Origin: Candidatus Micrarchaeota archaeon
Lineage (GTDB): Archaea > Micrarchaeota > Micrarchaeia > Micrarchaeales > CABMGC01
NCBI GenBank assembly: GCA_021817325.1
Contig: JAKAVK010000022.1
Span: 1,077 to 65,076 of the forward strand
Length of the DNA: 64,000 bases
Direction: 5' to 3'
A model generated the notes under the pieces. The model was not told the DNA's origin. It was given only the letters and a program-made list of their open reading frames with translations, and made no database searches. This document shows, piece by piece, positions 22,640 to 48,270 of this stretch. Numbering within the stretch: the stretch's first letter is position 1; each line of letters begins with the position of its first letter. Position numbers and translations under genes: made by a program.

Positions 22640-23770
22640 TCACTTTAGCATTACGCCGTCCAGCTTGTCCTTAAGATGCTCCTTCTTCTTCCTGTGTTCC
22701 TCGAGGAATCTATTGATCTTCTTTGCGAGGTCGACTTTGTGGTCTCCTGCAAGCAGAGTGCCGTCACGCTCTCCCTTGAATATCTTCTCCAGCTTATTAT
22801 CGTCAGGCTCGAAGAGGAACTTGTTGTATTGGCAGACGGCGCACTTCTCCGGATCCCCGCCGTACTTCTTCTGCAGTTCTGCTGTCGCCTGCTGGCCTGT
22901 TATCGCCTTGTTCACCTTCTTTGCCACGACCTCAGGCGCATCGTCGAGGTAGATGGTGTTGTCAGGGTCGCTTGAAGACATCTTAGGGTTGCCCTTGAGC
23001 CCAGGCATGAACTTCGCGTGCATTATCGCAGGTTTATAGTATCCCATCTTCTCGATCGCGTTCCTCGCTACCCTGAAGTGCACGTCCTGGTCAACACCAA
23101 GCGGTATTACACAGGGGATGTTCCTGCCGGCCTCGACTGACTTGATGAATGCGGGCACCGCCTGCATGCTCGGATAGAAGAGAGTACCGACGTTCGTCTC
23201 ATTAGTGAAGCCATACGCGTCCTTTGTTATTGAATAGGTTATGTACTTTGCCACCCGTACCGCATGTTTGTAGAGTTTCCCGGCGTACTCGGTGTTGAGG
23301 AAGAGCCTTGTCTTCTTTGTGTCGAAGCCCAGCGCCATTATATTCAGCGCATCGGCATACGCGAGCTCATGCACCTTCTCGAGCGTCAGTTTTGGGTCCC
23401 TCTTTGCAAGGAATTTCTCCTCGTCTGGTATCTCTATGAGGACCTCTGCATCGAACCTCTCCTGAAGCCACTGCGCCATTACAAACGAGGGAAGGTGCGC
23501 TATCGTCATGCCTCCTGAAGGCGCTATTCCGGTGTAGATGTAGAACCTGTTACCCTTCTCGTACTCGTCGAGCAGCCAGTTCATGTCCCTGTTGGCAAAG
23601 AATATTTTCCGCCTTATCATGTAGTGCAGCTCTCCGGCGTCCTTTTTTATGCGCTCCATGAGCCTGTTATCGATAGGCTGTATGCCGAATCGCTCCTCGA
23701 GCCTGCCGTAATCTACCTGCCCCTCAACGTCATATGGTGTTACGCTAAAATCTCCAGGCATCTGAACCAC
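22640..23770 (-). CDS. trpS: tryptophanyl-tRNA synthetase (archaeal/eukaryotic type)
   Basis: 'FYIYTGIAPSGGMTIAHLPSFVMAQWLQERFDAEVLIEIPDEEKFLAK' is colinear with human/archaeal TrpRS '[32 protein letters not shown]...DDEKYL' as I remember it. The KMSKS-equivalent is 'KMSSSDP'. Confidence 0.85.
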   Translation of the reverse strand: MVQMPGDFSVTPYDVEGQVDYGRLEERFGIQPIDNRLMERIKKDAGELHYMIRRKIFFANRDMNWLLDEYEKGNRFYIYTGIAPSGGMTIAHLPSFVMAQWLQERFDAEVLIEIPDEEKFLAKRDPKLTLEKVHELAYADALNIMALGFDTKKTRLFLNTEYAGKLYKHAVRVAKYITYSITKDAYGFTNETNVGTLFYPSMQAVPAFIKSVEAGRNIPCVIPLGVDQDVHFRVARNAIEKMGYYKPAIMHAKFMPGLKGNPKMSSSDPDNTIYLDDAPEVVAKKVNKAITGQQATAELQKKYGGDPEKCAVCQYNKFLFEPDDNKLEKIFKGERDGTLLAGDHKVDLAKKINRFLEEHRKKKEHLKDKLDGVMLK

Positions 23771-23921
23771 ACAGCACTTAGCTATAAGGTGCCTGGTGTT
23801 TTAAGCGTTTCTGTCTTTTTACCGCTCGGTGTCGTATTACATAATAACAAACTTTAGTGTCAAAATTGGAATATTCAGCAAGCCTTAAATATCATGTAAA
23901 TCAGGAAAGCATGTGAGAAAC

Positions 23922-24077
23922 ATGATCTACTCAGGATACGAGAACGGGCACTACTATGTCAGAATAACGAGCGATGTCAAACTGCTTGACGTGCTTGGCA
24001 TGCAGTACAGCGGCTTCAAGTTCCTGGGAGAGTACATGCTCTTCCTTAAGAGAAGGCAGACGATCTCCAACTCCTAG
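23922..24077 (+). CDS. candidate small protein, 51 aa (MIYSGYENGHYYVRITSDVKLLDVLGMQYSGFKFLGEYMLFLKRRQTISNS)
   Basis: Below the track cutoff, so I translated it myself. Codon usage resembles the housekeeping genes (gag, aag, ttc, tac, ata). A TATA-like 'CCTTAAATATC' lies 25-38 nt upstream. I prefer it over the antisense track ORF 23931..24188. Confidence 0.4.
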   Translation: MIYSGYENGHYYVRITSDVKLLDVLGMQYSGFKFLGEYMLFLKRRQTISNS

Positions 24078-24312
24078 CGTACAGAATAATGCATAATGCA
24101 TAAAAAAAGGGGGTTGTACAAGATACCCAGTGCATGGTGTCGGTTTGGAGAATAACATCAGAAAATTGCCCGTCGGAGGGGATCGCATTGCAAGGCAGCA
24201 GAGTACTGAGATACAGATTTTGCTCAGAGGCTATAATTTTTACGGCATGCGGCTGGAGTCGGGCGCTTCGACAGCAAGTGGAGCAGTCGTGGTGCGCAGT
24301 GGCTTTTTGATT

Positions 24313-24633
24313 ATGGCAAGACGCCTTATAGATCGCGCCGCAGTGGATCAGGCCGGTTTGACCGAAGTTCTAAACGCGGCTAGGTGGCTAGCTCTGAAGG
24401 AGCTTAAAATATCACAGGAAAGCGGCATGGTGAACAGGAGGATCACTGCCTTGGAGCTTTGCGATACCACGGTGGCTGTTGCCGCACAGGCAGGACTGGA
24501 AGTGAAAGCAGAGAGGGAAGTTGGTGCTCTTGAACTGAAGGTATTGAGGAGATGGTTGGGCACAGCAGAAAGCCGGAATTTAAATAGCTTGCCACGTCAC
24601 CCAGCGGACAAACCGCCAGACGAAGGCGCATAA
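24313..24633 (+). CDS. uncertain: hypothetical helical protein (106 aa) or non-coding structured region
   Basis: This is the internal ATG of track ORF 24130..24633. The stop is followed by the hairpins GGCCG...CGGCC (24634-24660) and CCACA...TGTGG (24680-24693). Codon usage is atypical (gaa, ttg, cta), and long ORFs are open in several frames. Confidence 0.3.
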   Translation: MARRLIDRAAVDQAGLTEVLNAARWLALKELKISQESGMVNRRITALELCDTTVAVAAQAGLEVKAEREVGALELKVLRRWLGTAESRNLNSLPRHPADKPPDEGA

Positions 24634-24699
24634 GGCCGGTTGACCCAGAACAGTACGGCCCAAAGAGCATGGGGTTCTTCCACATCTGTGTGGTTATTA

Positions 24700-26358
24700 T
24701 TACCCGGGCGGCAGGTCGTAGTGCGGCTGCTTTACTAGGTTGTAGAATTTAACCCCTAGTTCCTCTTTTACCTTGGCAGAGTACTGGGCTTCCTGACCCC
24801 ACACGGCCCACCTCCTTACGAAGCGTTCCGCGTCTTGCTGTGAGCCGGACGATTGTATCCCGAGCACCTCCCTAGTCATCGATGTGACAATACTATGGAA
24901 CTTGTCGAAATCAACTGTGAAGAGGCTACCATCGAATTTGATTGCACCGGACTCAAGGAAGTAGTTTAGCTTCATCAGATTGCCCACATAGTGTGCGTCC
25001 CTTCCTATCCTTGGTTCAGTCACCGGAAGATTCCTCATAAGCCCGTCCTCCACCCATACCCCGAGCATCTCTTCGGGGGTATATAAGCCCTTATTCACAA
25101 GAAGGGGCATGTTGTACATTGCGAGTAAGTCCGCCTTGAGCTCCTCTATGGTGTTGTGCCATTTACCCAGTGCGGTAGTGACATCCACATTGCCAGTTGT
25201 CCTCTTTGGCCCTAGCGAGTGGCTCACTTCATGGCCCATGGTTGAGTTGGTCATGTTCTGTGTGCTCACGTATCTGTGCAGGCTCGGCTCCACCATCCGC
25301 TCCAGCATGGCGGGATCGGTCCTGAATCCAGCAATCACGTTGCGGAATATGAGAATCTTCCTGCCCTCTTGGTCGAGCACCTTCTCGTCATTTGGGAGGG
25401 TTTGCGCGATGGTTATGTGTGGCCTGTGAGCATTGTAGTCGCCACTCATTGCAACTATGTCCACCATAGAGACCGGCACCACTATATCTGACATCTTCTT
25501 TGCGTGTGACTGCGGCTGCGGCAGGTTTTCCTCGAGTTCCTGCATTAGGCTGGCATAGCCTGACAGGCGGGCCGATTCTTCCGGAAGGTTCACGGTTACC
25601 ATGCCTGCATAAGCTGCCTTCTTGCCCAGCACGCGGTCGTGGTACGTCTCCAGCGGACCGATTATGACGTCGAGGTGCTGTGCCGGGGTCTTGACCCATA
25701 ACACATCGCTCGGATAGTAGAAGTCGCTTGTAAGGGAGTCGCCTCTCGCACGCAGATATCTAGCAAGGCCGCTGTCCTCCATCACCGAGGCGGCGCTCCT
25801 CAGCGAGGCTCTTGTTTGTGAGAGGGTTTCCGCATACTCGTATGCGAACGGCGTTGTGCTTATCGATGTTCCGTTAGTTGATACTATGGTGGTCTCTGAG
25901 AATATTGGTGACGATGGGTCGGTAATTCCTTTAGCCTGCAGAAAACCAGCCATGAAGTCATCAGTTATGACACGGGCTGGGTCCCGATAATTGGTGCCGC
26001 CAGACTTCTCAGGGAGCGGCTCTATGCCCTCGAATAGGGGAACCGTTTCGCTTTTTGGCGTGATGGCAACCGGCCCGTTGAAGATACTGTACGCATCGAG
26101 ATTGGCCATCGCCACCTCGTTGCCTCTCTTAACATCGCTTACAAGCTGCTCGTAGACTTCGTGGCTCTGGGGATGATCCTGCCTGTGGAACAATTCCTCC
26201 ATGCTTCGGAGGGCCTTTGCCAGGTCAGGCAGCGCCCTGAGCTGGTCCTGGGGAACGTTGCCCAGATCCGGCTCGAATGTAAATCTCCTGAGCCTTGCTG
26301 GATTGAGAAACGTCAGATTTAACTCCTCAACAGGTCTGTATTTGAATCTTTCTGCCAT
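24700..26358 (-). CDS. zinc metallopeptidase-like protein (HExxH; DPP III/M49-like second motif)
   Basis: Trimmed from the track start 26466 to ATG 26358, which lies 4 nt after the upstream ORF stop. 'GHEVSHSLGP' is followed about 30 residues later by 'EELKADLLAMY'. Confidence 0.6.
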   Translation of the reverse strand: MAERFKYRPVEELNLTFLNPARLRRFTFEPDLGNVPQDQLRALPDLAKALRSMEELFHRQDHPQSHEVYEQLVSDVKRGNEVAMANLDAYSIFNGPVAITPKSETVPLFEGIEPLPEKSGGTNYRDPARVITDDFMAGFLQAKGITDPSSPIFSETTIVSTNGTSISTTPFAYEYAETLSQTRASLRSAASVMEDSGLARYLRARGDSLTSDFYYPSDVLWVKTPAQHLDVIIGPLETYHDRVLGKKAAYAGMVTVNLPEESARLSGYASLMQELEENLPQPQSHAKKMSDIVVPVSMVDIVAMSGDYNAHRPHITIAQTLPNDEKVLDQEGRKILIFRNVIAGFRTDPAMLERMVEPSLHRYVSTQNMTNSTMGHEVSHSLGPKRTTGNVDVTTALGKWHNTIEELKADLLAMYNMPLLVNKGLYTPEEMLGVWVEDGLMRNLPVTEPRIGRDAHYVGNLMKLNYFLESGAIKFDGSLFTVDFDKFHSIVTSMTREVLGIQSSGSQQDAERFVRRWAVWGQEAQYSAKVKEELGVKFYNLVKQPHYDLPPG

Positions 26359-26362
26359 TCGA

Positions 26363-26683
26363 TCACTCTTTGTTATTGCCAGTGTCTCTTCCGCCAGATA
26401 ATTTGAGACCTTCGAGCCTTTTCCTAACAGTTTGTATCGTATGCCCGAATGCCTTTGCCATCTCATTCGGGGTCATCTGTGCCTCGATGGCTTGCCTGTA
26501 GGCCGCATCTGGTACGCGCCCGGCATAGAGATGTATCATGTTTATCTGACCTTCCGACTCAGTGCGTTCCCGGCGCATCTGTGCTATGACCATTTTGTTG
26601 TGCCGCTGCGCGTAGCGCATGGCTTCCGCAAGGGAGATGGGGGATTGCGTCTCTGCCGTTACAGCATCGCGTCTGACCGCCAT
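26363..26683 (-). CDS. small HTH-domain protein
   Basis: The C-terminal 'MTPNEMAKAFGHTIQTVRKRLEGL' looks like a helix-turn-helix. It lies directly upstream of the peptidase-like gene on the same strand. Confidence 0.5.
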   Translation of the reverse strand: MAVRRDAVTAETQSPISLAEAMRYAQRHNKMVIAQMRRERTESEGQINMIHLYAGRVPDAAYRQAIEAQMTPNEMAKAFGHTIQTVRKRLEGLKLSGGRDTGNNKE

Positions 26684-26759
26684 TCAATCACAAAAGGACA
26701 TTATTTTTTCCACCTAATAAAAATTACCTGTGAAAGGCACGGCAGGCTTGCTGGATCTC

Positions 26760-27158
26760 TTAGCGTAGTGCGCGTTGAAGCCTCAGATTGAGTTCTCCTT
26801 CGAGCGACGCGCGCATGCTGCGCACGATCTCTGCACTGCTCCTTCCACGCATCTCATCGACCATCTGGGCGGCATCTATAAAGGCAAGTGCCCTATATGA
26901 CACCCCAGTCCTGAATTCACTCCTTGCGAGTCTTAGCAGCATCCGGAACGTGTTGTATTTCTCCTTTGCACCCCCGGTGGCTGCATATTGGACCAGCGTT
27001 TTGAGACCCTCGTTGAAGCTCTTGTCCGCAGCAAATGCGCTATTAGGATCCCCATGCCTTACCCTCTTTGCCTCATCAAACAGGTTGCGGGCTTTGAGCA
27101 GTTGTGGCAGGCCGTCATATTTACTGCCTACATTCGCAGTGCTGATGCTCCTCTCCAT
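26760..27158 (-). CDS. hypothetical helical protein (132 aa)
   Basis: Track ORF. A TATA-like AAATTTAATCG sits on the minus strand 28-38 nt upstream of the ATG. I recognise no family. Confidence 0.45.
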   Translation of the reverse strand: MERSISTANVGSKYDGLPQLLKARNLFDEAKRVRHGDPNSAFAADKSFNEGLKTLVQYAATGGAKEKYNTFRMLLRLARSEFRTGVSYRALAFIDAAQMVDEMRGRSSAEIVRSMRASLEGELNLRLQRALR

Positions 27159-27539
27159 ATTTTCTACCCATAGTCTTGAACAACGATTAAATTTGGGATC
27201 CGCCCATTTTTATACTTATGCTGCAGATATGTGGGCGGGCAAGGCCCATGTACTCTTTTGTTGTCGTAGGTTTCACTCTGTTTCAACGTTTGTGATCAGT
27301 TGGTGTTTGCCAGGGCCATCGGCCCTGTTGAGTAAATTGAATTCTGTTGCAATAATGGCGATTTTTGAAGCAGGCAGTTGGAAGTTCGCCGCAAGACTAC
27401 TTTTTTCTACAAAAAGCCCCCTTGCTAGGCTTGTATTGCTTGCCGTGCGGCCGGCAAAAAGTTATATAAGCCTTTTCTTGCAAAGAATGTATGATGCGTC
27501 TCAGTGCTAGTGCTTGTTTTACTTGCGTTAGGTGTATGA

Positions 27540-27770
27540 TTGCCATCTAAGAGTGACCACGAGAGTGTGCCAGTTCACGAAAGGCTAGAGTACAAGGAAG
27601 TGAAGGCGGTCCTTGAGGAGAAAGGCCTCAGGATAGAGAATCTGCCCAAGATACTTGAGAGCGACCCGCAGGCAAAGAAGCTAGGTGCCAAGCCCGGCCA
27701 CGTGATACGCATACACAGGAAGGATGGCGAGAACGCCTACCTCTACTACCGTGTGGTAGTCGAGGGGTAG
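27540..27770 (+). CDS. rpoH: DNA-directed RNA polymerase subunit H (Rpo5)
   Basis: TTG start with AGGTG 6 nt upstream. 'VPVHERLEYKEVKAVLEEKGLRIENLPKILESDPQAKKLGAKPGHVIRIHRKD' fits the RpoH pattern H.LVP.H....LP.I...DP.....GAK.GDV..I.R. Confidence 0.85.
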   Translation: MPSKSDHESVPVHERLEYKEVKAVLEEKGLRIENLPKILESDPQAKKLGAKPGHVIRIHRKDGENAYLYYRVVVEG

Positions 27771-27819
27771 AGTAAGCAGGATACAGGCCTGTCTGACGTT
27801 ACGTTTATATTGTGATATC

Positions 27820-29289
27820 ATGCAACCGTTGCTAGAATCTTATCTTAACTCGACTTCCCTCGTACAGCACCAGGTGGAGAGCTTCAATAGGTTCCTCGAC
27901 TCCAGCCTGCAGAAGGTCGTTTCCAGGCAGAACATGATCGAGCCTAGCGTAGAAGGCTTTGCCCTCAAGCTTGGCAACATACGCCTTGACAGGATATCGA
28001 TAATAGAATCTGATGGTTCAAGAAGGGGCATACTCCCAAATGAGGCCCGGCTAAGAAACCTCACCTACGCGGCACCGATATTCATAGAGGTGGTGCCCAT
28101 AATAAGAGGTATAGAGAAGGCGGCCGCCTACGGAGAAGTCTTCGTAGGAGAGCTTCCGATTATGGTAAGATCAAATCTCTGCAACACAAAGAACATGGCC
28201 AAGAGCCAGATGGTTGAAAATGGCGAGGACCCTGAGGATCCGGGAGGCTACTTCATAATAAAGGGCGTCGAGCGCGTCCTTATCGGCCTTGAGGATGTCG
28301 CACCGAATAGGATAATAACAACCAAGGAAGGCGATGGCAAGGAGGTCAAGAGCCGTGTCTTTTCAACTACCCCTGGCTTCAGGGCTAGATGCGTGGTCAC
28401 TCGCAACCAGAACGGTATCTTCTCGATTGATTTCCCGACCACGAGCAAGAGCCTCGATTTCATAATGACGCTGAGGGCACTAGGGTTGCAGATGAACGAC
28501 GTACTTGCCTATTCCGAAGATCTTCTCTCCTTCAAGAACGACATGCTGCTCAATATGGAGACAAGCAATGCCAAAGAACTTGCACCGAAGGATGCGCTCC
28601 TAGAACTCGGAAAGATGGCAGCGCCAGGGCAGGCCTCCAAGTACCAGGAGAGGAGGGCGGAGATGCAGCTTGACAACTATCTCCTTCCGCACATAGGCAG
28701 CAGTGTAGAGGACAGGAAGGAGAAGGGCAAGTACCTGATCCAGATGGCCAGGAAGGCCACCATGATATCCAACAAGCTGGCAAAGCAGGATGACAAGGAC
28801 CATTACGCAAACAAGAGGGTCAAGTTCTCTGGGGAACTTATGGAGGAGCTCTTCGCATATGCATTTAGGTTCTTTGTGAAGGAGGTAAAGTACCAGATAG
28901 AGAGGACTAGTGCAAGGGGCAGGAAACTCTCAATCCAGGCGATAATAAACCCGGATACGCTCACCGAGAAGATCGCATACGCGATGGGAACGGGCACCTG
29001 GGTTGCAGGCCAGACCGGCGTATCGCAGGTGCTTGACAGGACCAATTTCATAAGCTCCTATACCCATCTGAGGAGGGTAAAGAGCCCACTTGCGAAGAAG
29101 CACCCTCACTTCAGAGCCAGGGACGTCCACGGAACGCAGTGGGGCAAGATCTGCCCGTCTGAGACCCCTGAAGGCCAGGAGGTGGGACTTACCAAGTATC
29201 TTGCACTGATGTCCAAGGTGACCGTAGGCGCAGACGAGGCGAGCGCAGAACAGAAGCTGAAGAGCCTTGGAAAAGTTGAACAGATATAA
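27820..29289 (+). CDS. rpoB2: DNA-directed RNA polymerase subunit B'' (N-terminal half of split Rpo2)
   Basis: Conserved RpoB N-terminal blocks are 'LVQHQVESFNRF', 'GGYFIIKGVERVLI', 'DHYANKRVKFSGELM' and 'HPHFRARDVHGTQWGKICPSETPEGQEVGLTKYLA'. Confidence 0.92.
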   Translation: MQPLLESYLNSTSLVQHQVESFNRFLDSSLQKVVSRQNMIEPSVEGFALKLGNIRLDRISIIESDGSRRGILPNEARLRNLTYAAPIFIEVVPIIRGIEKAAAYGEVFVGELPIMVRSNLCNTKNMAKSQMVENGEDPEDPGGYFIIKGVERVLIGLEDVAPNRIITTKEGDGKEVKSRVFSTTPGFRARCVVTRNQNGIFSIDFPTTSKSLDFIMTLRALGLQMNDVLAYSEDLLSFKNDMLLNMETSNAKELAPKDALLELGKMAAPGQASKYQERRAEMQLDNYLLPHIGSSVEDRKEKGKYLIQMARKATMISNKLAKQDDKDHYANKRVKFSGELMEELFAYAFRFFVKEVKYQIERTSARGRKLSIQAIINPDTLTEKIAYAMGTGTWVAGQTGVSQVLDRTNFISSYTHLRRVKSPLAKKHPHFRARDVHGTQWGKICPSETPEGQEVGLTKYLALMSKVTVGADEASAEQKLKSLGKVEQI

Positions 29290-29303
29290 AATTAGGTGTT
29301 TGC

Positions 29304-31136
29304 ATGGCTGACGAAAAAGAGAAAGGAAGATGCTATCTTTACCTGAACGGCCGGATCATCGGCTACCTTAGCGACCCTGAAGGATATGTCGCAGAGGTAA
29401 GGGCTGCGAGGAGGAGGGGCCTTATCTCTGGAGAGGTTAACGTAGCGTACCTCAAAAAGCTCAACGCGGTTAACGTGAATACCGACAGGGGCAGGATCAG
29501 GAAGCCATACATAATAGTGGAGAACAAGGTGCCGAAGCTGACCGCGGAGATAGGGGAGAAGATAAGGAAGAAGGAGGTTGACTTCAATTACCTTGTCAGA
29601 AACGGGATAGTAGAGTATCTCGATGCCGAAGAGGAGGAGAACGCCCTTGTCGCGTTCTCTGAGAGCGACATCACCGACGCAACGACCCATATGGAGGTCG
29701 ATGTGGCAGCGATCTTCGGATTCACTATAAACACCTCGCCGTTCCCTGAGCACAACAACCTTGCCAGGCATGCAATGCTGGCTAACTTCACCAAGCAGGC
29801 GGAGGGTATGTATCTCTCGAACTTCAACCTGAGGTTTGATTCGCGTGCATACCTGCTGTTCTATCCGCAGGCGCCGGTGGTTACTACAAAGGCCTATGAT
29901 GGCATAAATATACAGCACCACCCCAGCGGCCAGAACTTCGTTGTCGCTCTGTCAACATATTATGGGTACAACATGGCAGATGCAGTGGTTGTTAACAAGG
30001 CTGCAGTTGACAGAGGCCTTGGACGCAGCGTCTTCTACAAGACTTATGTTGACGAGGAGCGGAGATACCCAGGAGGGCAGAAGGACCGCTTCAAGATGCC
30101 CCCGCCTACTGCAGAGGGATACATGGGCGAGCACGTCTACGCAAAGCTGAGCGATGATGGCATCATCGAGCCAGAGATGCATGTTGAGGAGGGAGAGGCG
30201 CTCATAGGCAAGGTCGCTCCGCCAAGATTCCTTGAGGAGAACATAGGAGCCGGAGGCCTTGAAGAGAAGATGCGCGACGACTCCACAGTGCTAAAGACAG
30301 GGGAGAGCGGAGAGGTTGACAGCGTAGTATTCACCGAATCGACAGGCGCTACAAAGATAGTCAAGGTCAGGGTAAGGAGCCTGAGGGTGCCTGAGAAGGG
30401 CGACAAGTTTGCCAGCAGGCACGGCCAGAAAGGCGTTATCGCAATGGTGGTGCCGCAGGAGGACATGCCGTTCACTTCTGAGGGTGTCATACCGGATCTT
30501 ATGCTCAACCCCCACTCGATTCCCACAAGGCTTACTTTCGGGCACCTGCTCGAGACACTGGCCGGCAAGGCTGGGGCGGTAACTGGCAAGATAGTCGATG
30601 GAACGGCCTTCGCTGAGAAGGGCTCGGTGCGCATGGAGGAGTACAGCAGGGCGCTGGAGAGTCATGGCTTTGACAGGAACGGCGAGGAACTGCTTTATGA
30701 CGGAATAACAGGCAGGCCTTTTAAGTCACAGATCTTCACAGGGGTTGTCTATTACAACAGGCTTTACCACATGGTCAGCAACAAGATACAGGTAAGGAGC
30801 AGAGGCAAGGTGCAGATACTGACGCACCAGCCTACTGAGGGAAAGGCCAGGCAGGGTGCGCTGAGATTCGGAGAGATGGAACGTGATGCGCTCATAGGAT
30901 ACGGCGCGAGTCTCCTGCTCAAGGAGCGCCTGCTTGACCAGTCGGACAAGGCAGAAGTGCTGATCTGCAAAGAGTGCGGGGACATAGGCTACTACGACAG
31001 GATAAAGAAGGTGGCGATATGCCCGCTGTGCAACAGCAACAGCTTCGCGGAGGTCGAGATCAGCTACGCGTTCAAGATACTGCTCGACGAGATAAAGTCG
31101 TTGCATATACTTCCGAGCATAAAGCTAAACCAGTGA
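29304..31136 (+). CDS. rpoB1: DNA-directed RNA polymerase subunit B' (C-terminal half of split Rpo2)
   Basis: 'GDKFASRHGQKGVIA', 'PDLMLNPHSIPTRLTFGHLLE', 'YYNRLYHMVSNKIQVRSRGKVQILTHQPTEGKARQGALRFGEMERDAL' and a C-terminal Zn ribbon 'CKECGD...CPLC'. Confidence 0.92.
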   Translation: MADEKEKGRCYLYLNGRIIGYLSDPEGYVAEVRAARRRGLISGEVNVAYLKKLNAVNVNTDRGRIRKPYIIVENKVPKLTAEIGEKIRKKEVDFNYLVRNGIVEYLDAEEEENALVAFSESDITDATTHMEVDVAAIFGFTINTSPFPEHNNLARHAMLANFTKQAEGMYLSNFNLRFDSRAYLLFYPQAPVVTTKAYDGINIQHHPSGQNFVVALSTYYGYNMADAVVVNKAAVDRGLGRSVFYKTYVDEERRYPGGQKDRFKMPPPTAEGYMGEHVYAKLSDDGIIEPEMHVEEGEALIGKVAPPRFLEENIGAGGLEEKMRDDSTVLKTGESGEVDSVVFTESTGATKIVKVRVRSLRVPEKGDKFASRHGQKGVIAMVVPQEDMPFTSEGVIPDLMLNPHSIPTRLTFGHLLETLAGKAGAVTGKIVDGTAFAEKGSVRMEEYSRALESHGFDRNGEELLYDGITGRPFKSQIFTGVVYYNRLYHMVSNKIQVRSRGKVQILTHQPTEGKARQGALRFGEMERDALIGYGASLLLKERLLDQSDKAEVLICKECGDIGYYDRIKKVAICPLCNSNSFAEVEISYAFKILLDEIKSLHILPSIKLNQ

Positions 31137-31142
31137 GTATTC

Positions 31143-31613
31143 ATGCCTATAACACGAACAGGACGGAACAGGGCGCTTGCCGCTGCGGTAGAGAACTATA
31201 ATCTCAAAGCGGTTAGGGATGCTATACGTAGCGGCGCGGATTGCAATTCCCGGTGCGTAGTTGGAGCCATAAGCACAGCGGTTTTGGGCAGCTCACATTC
31301 GGCAGATCTTGTAAGGCTTCTTTTGCTGGACGGAGGAATGAAGGCGCCAGACAATCTGCTAAGCATTGCAATAAGGTTTAGGCGTTATGATGTCGCCGGG
31401 TTGCTGGTAGCAAACGGCGCGAAGGCCGCACAGTCGGACATTGATGCTTTAAAGGCGCGGGTAGAGATGGAACTGCCTGCCAAAAGGGACAGGGAACTGA
31501 TGAGGGTCGATGCTGAGATAGGCAATGTACACACGCTGCTTGGGGCTCTGCGCGAGAGGCAGGCGGCTGCGGACATACGGACGGATGGAAGAGAGCGCAC
31601 AGGTATTAGGTGA
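31143..31613 (+). CDS. ankyrin-repeat-like protein 1 (156 aa) inside the RNAP operon
   Basis: Starts 6 nt after the rpoB' stop. 'AVENYNLKAVRDAIRSGADCN', 'HSADLVRLLLLDGGMKAPD' and 'RRYDVAGLLVANGAKA' resemble the ANK consensus (..D.V..LL..GA..N). It shares the N-terminus 'MPITR.G' with the next ORF. Confidence 0.6.
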   Translation: MPITRTGRNRALAAAVENYNLKAVRDAIRSGADCNSRCVVGAISTAVLGSSHSADLVRLLLLDGGMKAPDNLLSIAIRFRRYDVAGLLVANGAKAAQSDIDALKARVEMELPAKRDRELMRVDAEIGNVHTLLGALRERQAAADIRTDGRERTGIR

Positions 31614-31617
31614 CATT

Positions 31618-32064
31618 ATGCCAATCACAAGGAGAGGATGGACTGAGAAACTGGTCGACGCGATGTCGCACGACGACCTTAGGGGAGCCCTTGAGGCAGT
31701 AAGGCGCGGGGCCGAGCATGACGATCCTTACGTCCATGCGCTCTTCCTGACTGGCATCTCGAGGGGCAGGCTTGAGATGGGAAGGGAGCTGATCAGGAAC
31801 GGCTTTAGGGTAACCCAGGAGGACCTCTCAAGTGCGATAGAGGGTAAGGACTATGCAGTTGCGCGTTTTCTGGTTGAGAACGGCGTGAGGCCTACTGCAG
31901 ATGAGAGGAATGCCCTTGAGGAGAGGGTGAACAGACCGATAATTGAAGATGGAAGAACCAGCGGGGAGTTATTTGAGCTCAAGGCGCTGATGAAGAGGAT
32001 ATATGAACAGGATGCGGGTGGAAACGCGGATGCCCATGACGCTCATGTTGAATTGGTTGCGTGA
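31618..32064 (+). CDS. ankyrin-repeat-like protein 2 (148 aa) inside the RNAP operon
   Basis: Trimmed from track ORF 31525 to ATG 31618, which has AGGTGA 8 nt upstream and lies 4 nt after the previous stop. Repeat-like units are 'SHDDLRGALEAVRRGAEHDD', 'GRLEMGRELIRNGFRV' and 'KDYAVARFLVENGVRP'. Confidence 0.6.
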   Translation: MPITRRGWTEKLVDAMSHDDLRGALEAVRRGAEHDDPYVHALFLTGISRGRLEMGRELIRNGFRVTQEDLSSAIEGKDYAVARFLVENGVRPTADERNALEERVNRPIIEDGRTSGELFELKALMKRIYEQDAGGNADAHDAHVELVA

Positions 32065-32069
32065 TTCTT

Positions 32070-34643
32070 ATGCAAGCGGAGATAATAGATAGTGTGAAAT
32101 TCGGGATAGTCTCTCCTGAGCAGATAAAGAGGCTCAGTGTAGTGAAGCTCAGTGTTCCAGACACGTACAACGAAGATGGTTACCCAATAGACGGAGGGCT
32201 GCTCGACCAGAGGCTTGGGGTCATAGATCCGGGCCTGGTATGCAAGACATGCGGGGCCAGGGCGAAGAGCTGCCCAGGCCACTTCGGCCACATAGAGCTT
32301 GTCAGACCGGTTATCCACTCCGAGTTCTCAAAAATAATATATATGGTAATACAGTCCACGTGCAGGAGCTGCCATAGGATACTGCTGAACGACGATGGAA
32401 TAAAGATGCTCGAGGAGAGAAGCCATGGAATCTCGATACTCGAGGAGGAGATGATAGGCGAGGGCGAAGGAGAGGAGGAGGGCAAGAAGTCTGATGAGAA
32501 GAGCCTTCTCAAGAGGATACGGAGCATCAAGAAGTGCCCCCACTGCGGCGCGGTGCAGCAGAAGATAAAGTTCTCCGCCCCGACATACTTCTATATTGAG
32601 GATAGAAAGCTCAAGCCGGATGAGATAAGGGACGCTATGGCCGCTGTAAGCAATGAGGACCTTAAGATCCTTGGGATAGACCCGGATGCAAGCCGGCCGG
32701 AATGGTTGATACTTGGACTTCTGCTGGTTCCACCAGTCAATGTGAGACCATCTATAACCCTCGAGAGCGGCGAGAGGAGCGAAGATGATCTGACGCACAA
32801 GCTCGTCGATATAATGCGCATAAACCAGAGACTGGGTCAGAACATAAATGCCGGCGCGCCGCAGATCATAATAGATGATCTCTGGGAACTGCTGCAGTAC
32901 CACGTTACCGCATATTTCAACAATGAGACATCCGGGATACCGCCGGCAAGGCATAGGTCAGGTAGGGCGCTAAAGACGCTGGCACAGAGGCTGAAGGGGA
33001 AGGAGGGCCGTTTCAGGTATAACCTGAGCGGCAAGAGGGTCAACTACTCCGCCAGAACAGTCATAAGCGTGGATCCTTACATAGACCTCAACGAGGTCGG
33101 GGTACCGCACGAGGTTGCCGAGAAGCTCACTGTGCCCTTCTACGTGACTGCATGGAATCTCGAGAAGGCGAAGGAGATGCTTGCACGCGCACAGTACCCT
33201 TCGATACTTAATCTTGTCAGTACAGACGGCAAGAGGAAGCGGGTCATAGACATCAACAGGGAGGAGCTTCTCAAGGAGCTAAAGCCAGGGGACATACTGG
33301 AAAGGCAGCTTGTTGATGGCGACATAGTGCTCTTCAATAGGCAGCCTTCACTACACAGGATGTCGATAATGGCGCACAGGGTCAGGGTATTGCCGGGCAA
33401 GACCTTCAGGATAAACTTCTGCGTTACTCCGCCGTACAATGCTGACTTCGACGGAGACGAGATGAATATGCACGTGCCGCAGACACTTGAGGCACAGGCC
33501 GAGGCGAAGTACCTGATGGAAGTGCAGTATCAGATCTTCTCGCCCAGGGACGGAGAGGCGATAATCACCAATAACGAGGACGGGATAACCGGAATGTACT
33601 TCCTTACAAAGGACGAGACAAGGCTGGATAAGGAGGAGGCTTCATATGTCCTTGGCATTGCGGGCATATACGAACTGCCGGAGCCTACAAAGGACGGCAT
33701 GTACAAGGGCAAGGACGTCTTCTCGATGCTGCTTCCAAAGGACCTTGACTTCGAGATAAAGAGCCATGGGAATACGTTCAAGATAAGCAAGGGCAAGCTG
33801 GTCGAGGGAGTGGTGACAAAGGAGACATACGGAAGGGGCAACAACAAGCTTCTCATCAAGATAGGCATGGATTATGGACCTGAAGCCCTCAGGAACTTTC
33901 TATTCGTCTCATCGAAGCTGGCAGACGCATACGTAACGCTCGCAGGAGTTACCGTTGGCACAAAGGAGTACATGACCAACGACGAGATAGAGAAGGCGAG
34001 GGCAGAACTTCTGGAGAACACCTTCAAGCAGGTGGATGAGAAGATAACGCAGTATAAGGATGGCAAGCTTGATCCGCTCATCGGCTATACCAGGAGGGAG
34101 TCGCTGGAGCGCATGATAATAGTGGACCTCAACGTTGCAAGGGAAGAGGCCGGAAGCGTGCTCATAAAGTACGTTAACGCGCTAAACAGCGCAATGCAGA
34201 TGGCCAGGGCGGGCTCGAGAGGCAGCATCTTCCAGTATGAACAGATGTCGATGTTCCTCGGCCAGCAGGCAACGCTCTCGGGAGGCAGGATAAAGAGAGG
34301 TTACTACACCAACAGGGTGCTGCCCCACATCTATAGCGGGGATGTGAGGCCCAGGGCGCGCGGATTCGTTGCCACCAACTATTACACAGGACTCTCCCCG
34401 ATAGACCTGTTCATGCACGCTGTAGGCTCAAGGGGGTCTGAGGTCTACAAGGCGCTGCTTACCGCGCGCAGCGGATATCTCTACAGGAGGCTGTCTAACG
34501 CGCTGCAGGACTTCCACGTTGACAGGGACCTCAGCGTAAGGGACACGAACAACAACCTCATACAGACAGTGTACGGCGGCGATGCAGTAAGCCCGGTGAA
34601 TGTCCAGTTCCTGAAGATGGCCGAGAAGGAAAAGGAGAAGTGA
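32070..34643 (+). CDS. rpoA1: DNA-directed RNA polymerase subunit A' (Rpo1N)
   Basis: ATG 32070; the track GTG 32061 overlaps the upstream stop as GTGA. It has an N-terminal Zn motif 'CKTCGARAKSCPGHFGHIEL', 'VLFNRQPSLHRMSIMAHRVRV' and the catalytic 'YNADFDGDEMNMHVPQ'. Confidence 0.93.
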   Translation: MQAEIIDSVKFGIVSPEQIKRLSVVKLSVPDTYNEDGYPIDGGLLDQRLGVIDPGLVCKTCGARAKSCPGHFGHIELVRPVIHSEFSKIIYMVIQSTCRSCHRILLNDDGIKMLEERSHGISILEEEMIGEGEGEEEGKKSDEKSLLKRIRSIKKCPHCGAVQQKIKFSAPTYFYIEDRKLKPDEIRDAMAAVSNEDLKILGIDPDASRPEWLILGLLLVPPVNVRPSITLESGERSEDDLTHKLVDIMRINQRLGQNINAGAPQIIIDDLWELLQYHVTAYFNNETSGIPPARHRSGRALKTLAQRLKGKEGRFRYNLSGKRVNYSARTVISVDPYIDLNEVGVPHEVAEKLTVPFYVTAWNLEKAKEMLARAQYPSILNLVSTDGKRKRVIDINREELLKELKPGDILERQLVDGDIVLFNRQPSLHRMSIMAHRVRVLPGKTFRINFCVTPPYNADFDGDEMNMHVPQTLEAQAEAKYLMEVQYQIFSPRDGEAIITNNEDGITGMYFLTKDETRLDKEEASYVLGIAGIYELPEPTKDGMYKGKDVFSMLLPKDLDFEIKSHGNTFKISKGKLVEGVVTKETYGRGNNKLLIKIGMDYGPEALRNFLFVSSKLADAYVTLAGVTVGTKEYMTNDEIEKARAELLENTFKQVDEKITQYKDGKLDPLIGYTRRESLERMIIVDLNVAREEAGSVLIKYVNALNSAMQMARAGSRGSIFQYEQMSMFLGQQATLSGGRIKRGYYTNRVLPHIYSGDVRPRARGFVATNYYTGLSPIDLFMHAVGSRGSEVYKALLTARSGYLYRRLSNALQDFHVDRDLSVRDTNNNLIQTVYGGDAVSPVNVQFLKMAEKEKEK

Positions 34644-34647
34644 TATT

Positions 34648-35691
34648 ATGGCTAAGGATGACAATGAGAAAGAGTACGAGATCGAATACAGCGAACCTGT
34701 AGGCATTCTTGCTGCACAGTCAGTCGGAGAGCCTGGCACGCAGATGATACTGCGCTCGTTCCACTTTGCAGGAATAGAGTCTGCCATAGCAACGTCTGGC
34801 CTGCCGCGCATAGTGGAGCTGGTCGATGCGAAGAAGAAGCCGGCAACTCCCATAACCTATGTCTACCTGTCTGGCAGCGCGGGCAAGAATGTTGAGGAAG
34901 CAGACAGGATAGCAAAGAAGATCAATGAGGTTAAGATGTCTACGCTGGTCAAGAGGACGGTTGAGAATTTCTCTAAAGGCACAATAAAGATACTGCTCAG
35001 CAAGCAGGAGCTAGAGTCGGAGGAACTCACCCTTGGACAGGTTGCAGATAGGATACAGAAGGTCATGAAGGTGGAGGCGCGCGCCGAGGACAGGTACGTC
35101 TTGGTAAAGATCCATACAAAGAACCTTAAGGAGATCAGGTCCACAGGTGTGAAGCTGATGAAGGCGGTCATAAGCGGCATCGAAGGTGCAGGAAAGGCAG
35201 TCATACAGCGCGACAAGAAGAGCGGAGAGTTCTATATCATAGCCGCAGGCAGCAACATAGAGGGCATCCTCACGGTAGACGGCGTTGACAAGTCAAGGAT
35301 TTACACGAATGACGTCTTCGCAATGTATAGGGTGTTTGGCATAGAAGCTGCAAGAAACGCGATAGCAAAGGAGCTCTCCACCACGCTGGATGAGCAGAAG
35401 ATATCTGTTGACATAAGGCATCTGCTGCTTATCGCAGACGCAATGACTGCAGGCGGCACCATCAAGGGAGTGGGGAGGCACGGGCTCAGCGGCCAGAAGA
35501 ACTCGGTCTTCGCTAAGGCTGCCTATGAGGAAACTGTCAAGCACCTGATAAACGCGGCTGCGTTCGGCGAGGTAGACCCAATGAAGGGAGTGACTGAGAA
35601 CATACTTGTTGGCAAGCAGATACCGATAGGGACAGGGTCGGTCAGGCTGGCCATAAAGAAGGAGGACATGTCAAGGGCAAAGCCCAGGTAA
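34648..35691 (+). CDS. rpoA2: DNA-directed RNA polymerase subunit A'' (Rpo1C)
   Basis: 'EPVGILAAQSVGEPGTQMILRSFHFAG' and 'TNDVFAMYRVFGIEAARNAI...HLLLIADAMT' are trigger-loop region blocks. Confidence 0.92.
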   Translation: MAKDDNEKEYEIEYSEPVGILAAQSVGEPGTQMILRSFHFAGIESAIATSGLPRIVELVDAKKKPATPITYVYLSGSAGKNVEEADRIAKKINEVKMSTLVKRTVENFSKGTIKILLSKQELESEELTLGQVADRIQKVMKVEARAEDRYVLVKIHTKNLKEIRSTGVKLMKAVISGIEGAGKAVIQRDKKSGEFYIIAAGSNIEGILTVDGVDKSRIYTNDVFAMYRVFGIEAARNAIAKELSTTLDEQKISVDIRHLLLIADAMTAGGTIKGVGRHGLSGQKNSVFAKAAYEETVKHLINAAAFGEVDPMKGVTENILVGKQIPIGTGSVRLAIKKEDMSRAKPR

Positions 35692-35805
35692 ACCGCTAAT
35701 GCGTTCCTGATGCGCCTGTTACAGAATAACAATGATTGGCTGTTGCTTTGCTAAATTGGGCATCATTTAATATACCATGGTCACAATGAAGACAAATGTG
35801 ATCAT

Positions 35806-36765
35806 GTGTCAGGTTTGAGTAGAAGCATCAGGATGGCTAGCAGGAATCAGCGCGCGGACTTGAAGAGAGCATTTAGAGACGCTACTGGAACCTCTGGGGA
35901 GCTCGTGGCGCTTGCAGTTGAAGCACGCGCTGAAGGCTACAATAGATACTCCAAGAAGCTGTATAGAAAGGCTGAAGGGGCGGCATATGGACCTGACGAT
36001 CTCGTAGTGCTTGCTGCCAAGGTACATGAGAGCGGCTATAAGAGGTACGCAAGACAGTTATATGATAAGGCGATCGCAGGCCACGGGACTTCTCCCATCG
36101 CAGTTGCAATAGCATCGCAGGCGCTGCACCAGTACAGGCGCGCTGCGATTTTGGAAGAGAAAGCTGCTATGAAGATCGGGGATCAGGGCGCAAGGGCAGA
36201 TGCCGTAAAGGGCGCGATAAACATCGCATGGTTCGGAGCTACTGCACCGTCCTCAATAAATTTATATGGGCTTGAGCGCCAGCGCAGCCTTACCGAACGA
36301 GGGAGGGTCAACCGCAACATAAAGGCAGCTCTGCAGATATATGAGAGGGAGAGGAAGCGCCTGAATCGCGAACATAATCCCAAAGCGGCAAGGGAGCTCG
36401 GAAAGTTCTTCGAGGATGGGAGCCGCAAGGTACAGGAAAGACTTGAGAGTTACGTAGACGGAGTACCTGTGCTTCACCACAGGGGCAGGACGGCCATGAA
36501 AGAAGTGCGCACTGCTGTTGCCGCTGTGCCAGCTGCGCTGATCATAGGTGCGGTAGCTATAGGCGTAGGGATCGCAAGCGCTGCGGCATCTGCAAGGGAC
36601 AAGGTGAAGAAGGCGATGCAGGAGAGGAAGAAGAGAGAGGAAGCGCACAGGAAGGAGCCAGCGCACAGAATCCCAGCAAGTAGCGAGGCAGCAGTAGCAT
36701 CGGAGAATGGATATGTAAGGATCTCCTTTGTTCCCCAGCACAAGACCGCAGGCAATAACGAATAA
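35806..36765 (+). CDS. hypothetical repeat-containing, C-terminally TM-anchored protein
   Basis: GTG 35806; ATG 35833 is an alternative. Internal repeats are 'ELVALAVEARAEGYNRYSKKLYRKAEG' and 'DLVVLAAKVHESGYKRYARQLYDKAIAG'. The TM segment is 'AAVPAALIIGAVAIGVGIASAAA'. Confidence 0.5.
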   Translation: MSGLSRSIRMASRNQRADLKRAFRDATGTSGELVALAVEARAEGYNRYSKKLYRKAEGAAYGPDDLVVLAAKVHESGYKRYARQLYDKAIAGHGTSPIAVAIASQALHQYRRAAILEEKAAMKIGDQGARADAVKGAINIAWFGATAPSSINLYGLERQRSLTERGRVNRNIKAALQIYERERKRLNREHNPKAARELGKFFEDGSRKVQERLESYVDGVPVLHHRGRTAMKEVRTAVAAVPAALIIGAVAIGVGIASAAASARDKVKKAMQERKKREEAHRKEPAHRIPASSEAAVASENGYVRISFVPQHKTAGNNE

Positions 36766-36897: not shown

Positions 36898-37125
36898 ATG
36901 GCAACACAAGAGAGGCCTTTTGATTTGTTGAACAAGGCGATAGGGCAGCAGGTAATGATAAGGCTGAAGAACGGAACCGACATACGCGGCAAGGTGACGT
37001 CGTTCGATGCCCACATGAATCTTGTGCTCGAGAACGCAGAGGAGCTTGAGGAAGGCAACCTTCACGCCAAGATAGGCACAATACTCCTTAGGGGGGGAAA
37101 TATACTCTTCATCTCGCCAGCCTGA
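36898..37125 (+). CDS. Sm-like archaeal protein (SmAP/LSm)
   Basis: 'PFDLLNKAIGQQVMIRLKNGTDIRGKVTSFDAHMNLVLENAEE...ILLRGGNILFISP' contains the Sm1 and Sm2 motifs. Confidence 0.88.
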   Translation: MATQERPFDLLNKAIGQQVMIRLKNGTDIRGKVTSFDAHMNLVLENAEELEEGNLHAKIGTILLRGGNILFISPA

Positions 37126-48173: not shown

Positions 48174-48270
48174 GGGCCCGTAGCTCAGCTTGGATAGAGC
48201 GGCAGACTTCTAATCTGATGGTCACGGGTTCAAAAGTGCTTGAAAAAGCCTGAAAATCCCGTCGGGCCCG
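48174..48270 (+). tRNA. tRNA-Arg (anticodon UCU) with a 22-nt intron in the T loop (59/60)
   Basis: Hand-folded as GGGCCCG/UA/GCUC/AGCUUGGAUA/GAGC/G/GCAGA/CUUCUAA/UCUGA/UGGUC/ACGGG/[UUCAAA + intron + U]/CCCGU/CGGGCCC/G. There is one G27.A43 mismatch. No CCA is encoded. Confidence 0.8.
48235..48256 (+). other. tRNA-Arg intron (BHB-bounded)
   Basis: The 4-bp helix UUCA (48229-32)/UGAA (48251-54) is flanked by bulges AAA (48233-35) and AAU (48255-57). The inner helix is G48236-C48250 plus GCUU (48238-41)/AAGC (48246-49), closed by a GAAA tetraloop. Confidence 0.7.

Follow-up and report, generated by a model that had tools for sequence, protein, structure and literature searches.

AnkB of Pseudomonas aeruginosa, encoded in the katB-ankB operon, is a bacterial, envelope-associated ankyrin (ANK) protein with a catalase as its partner, and is a precedent for an operon-linked ANK helper. 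Rpo13 of the Sulfolobales is a small lineage-specific subunit of archaeal RNA polymerase (RNAP) that RNAP structures show in the bound state. It does not belong to the ANK proteins and is not known to be encoded between rpoB and rpoA. The analysis described here concerns two adjacent open reading frames (ORFs), ORF1 and ORF2, located between rpoB' and rpoA' within the RNAP operon of a Candidatus Micrarchaeota archaeon (DPANN). The DNA analyzed is a single 64-kb stretch, referred to as the window, and coordinates are window positions. Like AnkB, the ORFs would be small prokaryotic ankyrin proteins co-transcribed with an adjacent enzyme gene, the likeness being one of repeat type. Like Rpo13 they are small, helical, and phylogenetically restricted, but they are missing from most close relatives and their binding to RNAP is hypothetical. 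A characterized archaeal ankyrin protein is tANK of Thermoplasma volcanium, which has five canonical repeats (PMC8229355). It shares with the ORFs the character of a small soluble archaeal ANK protein, yet it is not among the best 60 of the 306 Protein Data Bank (PDB) matches of the family profile described below, indicating no specific relationship. To our knowledge, tANK is not encoded in an RNAP operon. The order to which T. volcanium belongs hosts acidophilic Micrarchaeota, and Micrarchaeota are episymbionts. ANK proteins as a whole are uncommon in archaea (15 of 133 strains, about 11%) and are enriched in host-associated microbes (PMC3932732). A literature search combining ankyrin with Micrarchaeota, DPANN, and RNAP operon insertions turned up no published case of an archaeal RNAP operon that includes an ankyrin gene.

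ORF1 and ORF2 are real, selected genes. The two are significant paralogues (BLASTP, 32% identity over 107 aa, E 3e-11), which bears out the tandem duplicate pair proposed in an initial annotation of this DNA. Where the two proteins agree in residue, 26 of 39 degenerate codons are not the same, the codons of the common MPITR start among them, and synonymous sites are saturated. Because the codons of identical residues differ synonymously, the duplication must be old and the identities must have been kept by selection; the same differences within MPITR led to the rejection of gene conversion as the source of the common start. Twenty-two conspecific metagenomic contigs carry both ORFs intact, with ORF2 unchanged throughout and ORF1 either identical or altered only by the neighboring substitutions R10M and A11V. 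Sources of these contigs include SRR13206276, SRR13205817, SRR13205815, and ERZ27237285. In more distant lineages, with RpoB' 78-83% identical, the junction ORF stays open, and that of lineage L093 is a clear homologue.

The R10M and A11V substitutions belong to a second strain (contigs L002, L005, and L007-L009), whose ORF1 differs only by adjacent non-synonymous single-nucleotide polymorphisms (SNPs) at 31171 and 31174; two SNPs are too few for a selection test. On L002, the longest variant contig, all three SNPs in rpo genes are synonymous. Three further non-synonymous changes are present on L005, one near the assembly end and two in rpoA'. The proposal that the ORFs are non-functional, either as chance reading frames or as decaying remnants in a long spacer, draws on these two non-synonymous changes as the only strain differences in ORF1, as well as on Pfam cut-offs that are not reached, a G+C content at third codon positions of 0.54 and 0.60 compared with 0.65-0.70 in the rpo genes, and single-sequence searches with ORF1 and ORF2 in 5.8 billion proteins that return the ORFs alone. 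It is contradicted by two adjacent significant paralogues that fill the spacer exactly, by Shine-Dalgarno-like signals and confident AlphaFold models for both ORFs, by profile homology to ankyrins down to E 1.8e-14, and by a homologue whose reading frame persists at this site in a lineage where synonymous divergence is saturated. Chance ORFs were rejected on paralogy, fold, profile homology, and the clear L093 homologue at the same site, and the explanation as a whole is effectively refuted, its remaining probability being negligible.

The initial annotation described both products as ankyrin-repeat-like, a label that is justified, judging from profile comparisons and the predicted fold, provided that "degenerate" is added to it: the Pfam gathering score is not attained, the TPLH tetrapeptide is absent, and the fold match of ORF2 alone is weak. 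In Pfam, ORF1 reaches 20.8 bits with Ank_2 (E 6e-4), short of the 27.3 bits required, and ORF2 has no ANK match. The ORF at the same junction in lineage L013 matches Ank_2 at 19.7 bits (E 1.3e-3), and the L093 ORF has no match to the ANK models. Direct reading located neither TPLH nor a close variant in ORF1 or ORF2. A profile of ORF1 and ORF2 retrieved 1121 proteins at E <= 1e-3 in an exhaustive search of 1.84 billion representatives, and all six of the listed matches that were compared with Pfam proved to be ANK proteins. A profile of the four junction proteins (ORF1, ORF2, and the L093 and L013 ORFs) matched 306 PDB chains at E <= 0.01, led by ankyrin-1 (E 1.8e-14), and the best 60 of these 306 are all ankyrin-repeat proteins or designed ankyrin repeat proteins (DARPins). 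KIDINS220 and RNase L are also matched. ORF1 alone (phmmer) recovered 17 PDB ankyrin chains at E <= 0.01.

In common with ankyrin proteins (Pfam Ank_2, PF12796, and Ank, PF00023; three-repeat DARPins), the ORFs have three stacked helix-turn-helix repeats with a period of 32-33 residues and the consensus skeleton L..A...G....V..LL..GA..N. They differ from ankyrins and DARPins in the features that make them degenerate and also in the unusually long first helices of repeats 1 and 2 and an extra C-terminal helical hairpin. NCBIfam and Pfam gave no match to a known Rpo subunit or transcription-factor family, and PHROGs yielded nothing under E 0.03. PADLOC matched ORF1 (E 4e-3) and the L013 ORF (E 3e-4) weakly to the candidate PDC-M72A, perhaps through a common ankyrin-like stretch. 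In PADLOC and PHROGs the ORFs match no defense or toxin-antitoxin family convincingly, and relatives hold one gene rather than a pair. The ORF1/ORF2 family is a new, very divergent family of small ankyrins, whose location is unusual but patchy.

AlphaFold2 models, built on alignments of only 2-4 sequences, reached a predicted local distance difference test (pLDDT) value of 85.3 and a predicted template modeling (pTM) score of 0.73 for ORF1, and 84.9 and 0.76 for ORF2. Both models consist of three helix pairs with a period of 30-33 residues followed by the C-terminal hairpin, and in ORF1 the repeat helices comprise residues 5-17/21-29, 37-49/53-63, and 70-78/82-90. The peptides that the initial annotation quoted as ankyrin-like lie at residues 52-70 of ORF1 and 77-95 of ORF2. 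Structure prediction, suggested there as a check of the ANK fold, supports it for ORF1, whereas the fold match for ORF2 alone is weak. The ORF1 model superposes on DARPins and other ankyrin domains, which are the top Foldseek matches (probability 1.00, rmsd 2.4-2.8 A over ~97 residues). The ORF2 model gave weak helical-repeat matches (E 0.35-1.8), with DARPins at a probability of 0.8-0.9. Its top match, a plastid RNAP accessory chain (chain F), was rejected as a relative at E 0.35 and an rmsd of 6.5 A. DSSP shows no strands in either model and hence no beta-hairpin fingers.

The two proteins have opposite charge, ORF1 being basic (isoelectric point 9.9, charge +5.7) and ORF2 acidic (isoelectric point 5.3, charge -7). 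Neither has an apparent signal peptide or membrane segment. A twin-arginine signal was considered for the sequence TRRGW and rejected, since it is not followed by a hydrophobic h-region and residues 5-17 form part of the first repeat helix in the AlphaFold model. The C-terminal hairpin of ORF1, as modeled, might serve in dimerization or docking.

Every sequence-level statement of the initial annotation about the gene pair holds, namely that two ORFs of 156 and 148 aa, both beginning MPITR.G, lie between rpoB' and rpoA' (Table 1). The tight packing that it reported is confirmed, with spacers of 6 nt (GTATTC) between rpoB' and ORF1, 4 nt (CATT) between ORF1 and ORF2, and 5 nt (TTCTT) between ORF2, which ends in the GTGA at 32061-64, and rpoA'. 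The AGGTGA element ahead of ORF2 overlaps the ORF1 stop codon. A GTG at 32061 is in frame with rpoA', but the ATG at 32070 is taken as the real start because RpoA' in relatives begins MQAE or MQTE. By direct reading, all genes of the operon, ORF1 and ORF2 included, have a Shine-Dalgarno-like element of GGTGA or GTGA type 4-7 nt 5' of the start, and the AGGTGA of ORF2 is the same type of signal as is found 5' of rpoH, rpoB', rpoA', and rpoA''.

The TTATATAA box at 27462 is the sole good archaeal-promoter-like element ahead of the operon. Scanning of the plus strand from 27805 to 36000 detected neither a TATA-like box nor five or more consecutive T, a T run being the usual archaeal termination signal. 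Scans of the operon region for bacterial-type promoters and terminators gave chance-level results only, and Rfam identified no RNA family there. No sequence signal separates the ORFs from the rpo genes, in agreement with the earlier observation that no promoter-like AT box breaks the run, and ORF1 and ORF2 are probably co-transcribed with the rpo genes from the rpoH promoter. The further claim that they are stoichiometrically linked with core RNAP is unsupported, since translational coupling leaves protein ratios unfixed and internal termination within archaeal RNAP operons is documented (PMC10450193).

Table 1. Features of the RNAP operon and of the two ORFs (window positions).
Feature	Position	Strand	Description	Basis
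TATA-like box TTATATAA	27462-27469	+	~70 nt 5' of rpoH, AAAAAG before the box; putative promoter	Regular-expression scan and direct reading
rpoH	27540-27770	+	Rpb5 C-terminal domain; first gene of the operon	Translation; Pfam RNA_pol_Rpb5_C on the identical gene in L001
rpoB''	27820-29289	+	N-terminal half of split subunit B	Translation; Pfam Rpb2_1/2/3
rpoB'	29304-31136	+	C-terminal half of subunit B	Translation; Pfam Rpb2_4-7
ORF1	31143-31613	+	156 aa, starts MPITRTG; basic, ankyrin-like	
ORF1 helix pairs	31155-31430	+	Three degenerate ankyrin-type pairs, residues 5-96, period 32-33	AlphaFold2, Foldseek, Pfam, phmmer
ORF1 C-terminal helical hairpin	31431-31601	+	Residues 97-153, helices 97-115 and 119-153	AlphaFold2
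AGGTGA element of ORF2	31608-31613	+	Shine-Dalgarno-like	Direct reading
ORF2	31618-32064	+	148 aa, starts MPITRRG; acidic paralogue of ORF1	
rpoA'	32070-34643	+	N-terminal part of split subunit A; start conserved in relatives	Translation; Pfam Rpb1_1-5
rpoA''	34648-35691	+	C-terminal part of subunit A; closes the run of rpo genes	Pfam Rpb1_5; tblastn to relatives

A search with RpoB' retrieves Micrarchaeota, the closest GTDB representatives being 85% identical and the closest proteins from JGI metagenomes 81% identical. The expectation that rpoB and rpoA are normally contiguous is met in 157 archaeal loci containing both genes, where the rpoB'-rpoA' spacer has a median of ~21 nt (6-17 nt in close relatives). 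Comparison of this junction across related genomes, which had been proposed as a check, reveals a lineage-specific insertion: 153 of the 157 junctions hold no gene, and besides this genome gene-sized inserts are found only in L093 (a 182-aa ORF), L013 (a 135-aa ORF), and L061. Nine of the 12 lineages in the two nearest clades have no insert. The L061 insert (positions 2078-2560 of that locus), from a distant Micrarchaeota metagenome-assembled genome (MAG), is unrelated to the ORFs. It lies exactly at the rpoB'-rpoA' junction, as they do, but encodes a 160-aa membrane protein of a different fold, a bacterial PH domain (bPH_2, E 3.4e-9) with transmembrane helices. Its presence indicates that the junction tolerates unrelated guest genes. 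In another Micrarchaeota MAG, L059 (7797-11483), rpoA' and rpoA'' are seemingly fused into a single ORF of 1133 aa, and the 297-nt spacer between rpoB' and the fused gene contains no convincing ORF (none > 46 aa).

The L093 ORF is securely related to the pair (BLASTP E 1e-5 against ORF2 and 5e-5 against ORF1; hhalign, 88% probability, E 2.8e-6), and its alignment is colinear from the N-terminal [ST]-[KR]-x-G-[WR] motif. The L013 ORF is ankyrin-like and aligns plausibly to the family, but it is only a possible orthologue because its hhalign score against the family profile (30.5, E 2e-4) is no better than that of a consensus designed ankyrin (31.5, E 1e-4). It is also less similar to ORF1 and ORF2 than is the ORF of the phylogenetically more distant L093. 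When each ORF and the four-sequence profile were run against 5.8 billion proteins, the only matches were the four junction proteins and one generic ankyrin; the profile search scored the 8000 candidates with the most shared words, and very divergent members outside the surveyed junctions may escape it. No relocated copy was found in non-carriers in either the 5.8-billion or the 1.84-billion protein search.

In a neighbor-joining tree of RpoB', the window falls in clade A (100% bootstrap) with L011, L020, L012, and L013, of which L013 and L012 group at 98%. L093 falls in clade B (100% bootstrap) with L015, L102, L014, L017, L092, and L040. Carriers are scattered, as L012, the sister of L013, and L102, L014, and L015, clade-mates of L093, have no insert, and this distribution calls for a single gain followed by five or more losses, or else for three gains. 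Three gains are the more parsimonious count, and this favors repeated independent acquisition, in which an ANK-type cassette of selfish or mobile-like character would have entered the junction three times or spread by recombination through the rpo flanks. The ambiguous affinity of the L013 ORF points in the same direction. No nuclease, integrase, or other mobility function accompanies the genes, however, and no flanking repeats occur beyond the stop-plus-Shine-Dalgarno motif. The G+C content is fully ameliorated in each host (ORFs 0.55 versus genome 0.52 here; 0.41 versus 0.425 in L093), similarity of RpoB' among carriers is not raised near the junction, viral contigs contain no relatives, and no possible donor was found elsewhere in the protein databases searched. 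Repeated acquisition is regarded as very unlikely. Recent flank-mediated transfer between carriers was rejected on the flat RpoB' identity near the junction, and a recent foreign or viral origin on the ameliorated G+C content and the lack of relatives on viral contigs and of PHROG and PADLOC matches. Long vertical residence with repeated loss is favored, as a reading of sequence comparisons, because G+C tracks the host, RpoB' similarity near the junction is flat, and no relatives occur among viral, defense, or phage families. Ancient transfers of the insert are possible.

Since nine of the 12 nearest lineages have no insert and no relocated copy, the polymerase works without it, and the insert is dispensable for the lineage as a whole. 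The interpretation ranked first, with about an even chance of being correct, is that the ORFs are dispensable guest genes, ankyrin adaptors that use the operon for expression and whose partner lies outside the conserved polymerase. In this scheme, a founder ankyrin-type gene would have entered the rpoB'-rpoA' junction in the ancestor of one Micrarchaeota subclade and survived in few lineages, singly in L093 and probably also in L013, and as a pair in this genome. The guest would later have been duplicated, giving the old tandem pair with three degenerate ANK repeats and a helical hairpin in each protein. Both genes would be read from the rpoH promoter within the polymerase transcript and translated by way of GGTGA-type coupling signals like those that the rpo genes have, the operon supplying constant expression for soluble protein-binding adaptors that are not part of RNAP. 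The copies may have diverged into basic and acidic forms by sub-functionalization, possibly forming a heterodimer. The pair would act as adaptors with a non-RNAP partner, probably a variable protein (host, viral, or lineage-specific) rather than the conserved polymerase surface.

The principal competing explanation is that ORF1 and ORF2 are lineage-specific RNAP accessory factors, whose ANK repeats would dock on RpoB', RpoA', or an assembly intermediate while the subunits are being made from the shared mRNA. The C-terminal hairpins would pair basic ORF1 with acidic ORF2, and the resulting complex would chaperone assembly, serve in regulation, or shield against an inhibitor. The support for such a role is positional, and it is considered possible but doubtful. 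Every known family member lies exactly between rpoB' and rpoA', coupling is tight with rpo-like Shine-Dalgarno-type signals, and promoter or terminator signals between the genes were not found. The ANK fold is a protein-binding scaffold, the paralogues carry complementary charges (+5.7 and -7), and MPITR has been kept despite synonymous divergence. These points are countered by the absence of the insert from most of the nearest lineages and by the rapid divergence of the family, which is about 25% identical (~22-32%) where RpoB' is 78-85% identical. The invariant columns of the family are mostly structural positions of the ANK consensus (G, L, A) and do not form an obvious conserved binding surface, the ORFs are homologous to none of the known Rpo subunits or transcription factors, and in L061 this junction is taken up by a membrane protein that is evidently unrelated. 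RpoB' shows no carrier-specific residues, a result that is uninformative rather than refuting. A basic/acidic ankyrin heterodimer made from the same mRNA as B' and A', docking on RNAP or its assembly intermediates and evolving fast against a viral or host antagonist, is unlikely.

Of the two alternatives offered in the initial annotation, RNAP-associated factors or an operon hitch-hiker duplication, the data lean to the latter, given the absence from nine of 12 lineages, the fast divergence, the lack of carrier-specific RpoB' residues, and the other guests nearby. The initial annotation had also counted absence from close relatives with no trace of selection as a refutation, and only half of this applies: the ORFs are indeed absent in most relatives, but selection is evident where they are present. 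Several considerations nevertheless weigh against the guest-gene interpretation. All four known family members occur at the rpoB'-rpoA' junction and nowhere else, as would also be expected of a polymerase-linked function. Selection should act against an insertion that splits an essential operon with such tight coupling, unless the insertion is at least harmless to polymerase expression, and perhaps useful to it. The grouping of clades A and B is weakly supported (45%), leaving the history of gain and loss uncertain, and the survey of relatives comprised GTDB representatives and JGI metagenomes only.

Other genes without counterparts in relatives are found on either side of the rpo block. Between rpoA'' and an LSM gene (36898-37125) lies an orphan ORF of 319 aa on the plus strand (35806-36765; 310 aa from the ATG at 35833), with no Pfam match, a weak PADLOC match to LeoBC (E 4.5e-4), internal helical repeats, and a C-terminal hydrophobic stretch. 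In L011, L020, and L013 the LSM gene follows ~40-70 nt after rpoA'', and because the two nearly adjoin there the orphan is a second, species-specific insertion beside the operon. On the other side, genes 5' of rpoH in the region 22640-27510 (e.g., minus-strand 24700-26466 and plus-strand 26788-27510) are not matched in the flanks of the eleven nearest relatives, apart from the ORF at 22640-23770, which has a counterpart in L012 (73% identity). The lack of counterparts for these genes indicates that synteny breaks directly outside the rpo block. On the variant contig L002, ~870 nt of different sequence lie 5' of rpoH from 27319/27320 and include a minus-strand gene for IMP cyclohydrolase. Elsewhere in the window, Rfam gave a short tRNA match on the plus strand (48174-48232, 59 nt), whose 32.9 bits barely exceed the gathering score; ARAGORN detected no tRNA in all 64 kb, and the match might represent a truncated or atypical tRNA.

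Few known gene orders are as rigid as that of the archaeal rpoH-B-A'-A'' block. The presence within it of a guest gene that is under selection and has been duplicated indicates that even such an operon can gain cistrons in the reduced genomes of symbionts, the surrounding rpo genes then giving the guests a promoter and a ribosome-binding context. Should binding to the polymerase prove true, the ORFs would represent a new class of accessory factors for archaeal RNAP and would offer access to transcription in DPANN archaea that are uncultivated, and a basic/acidic heterodimer would be the first archaeal accessory or assembly factor for RNAP that is of ankyrin type. Otherwise, the pair would be a clean natural case of operon hitch-hiking.

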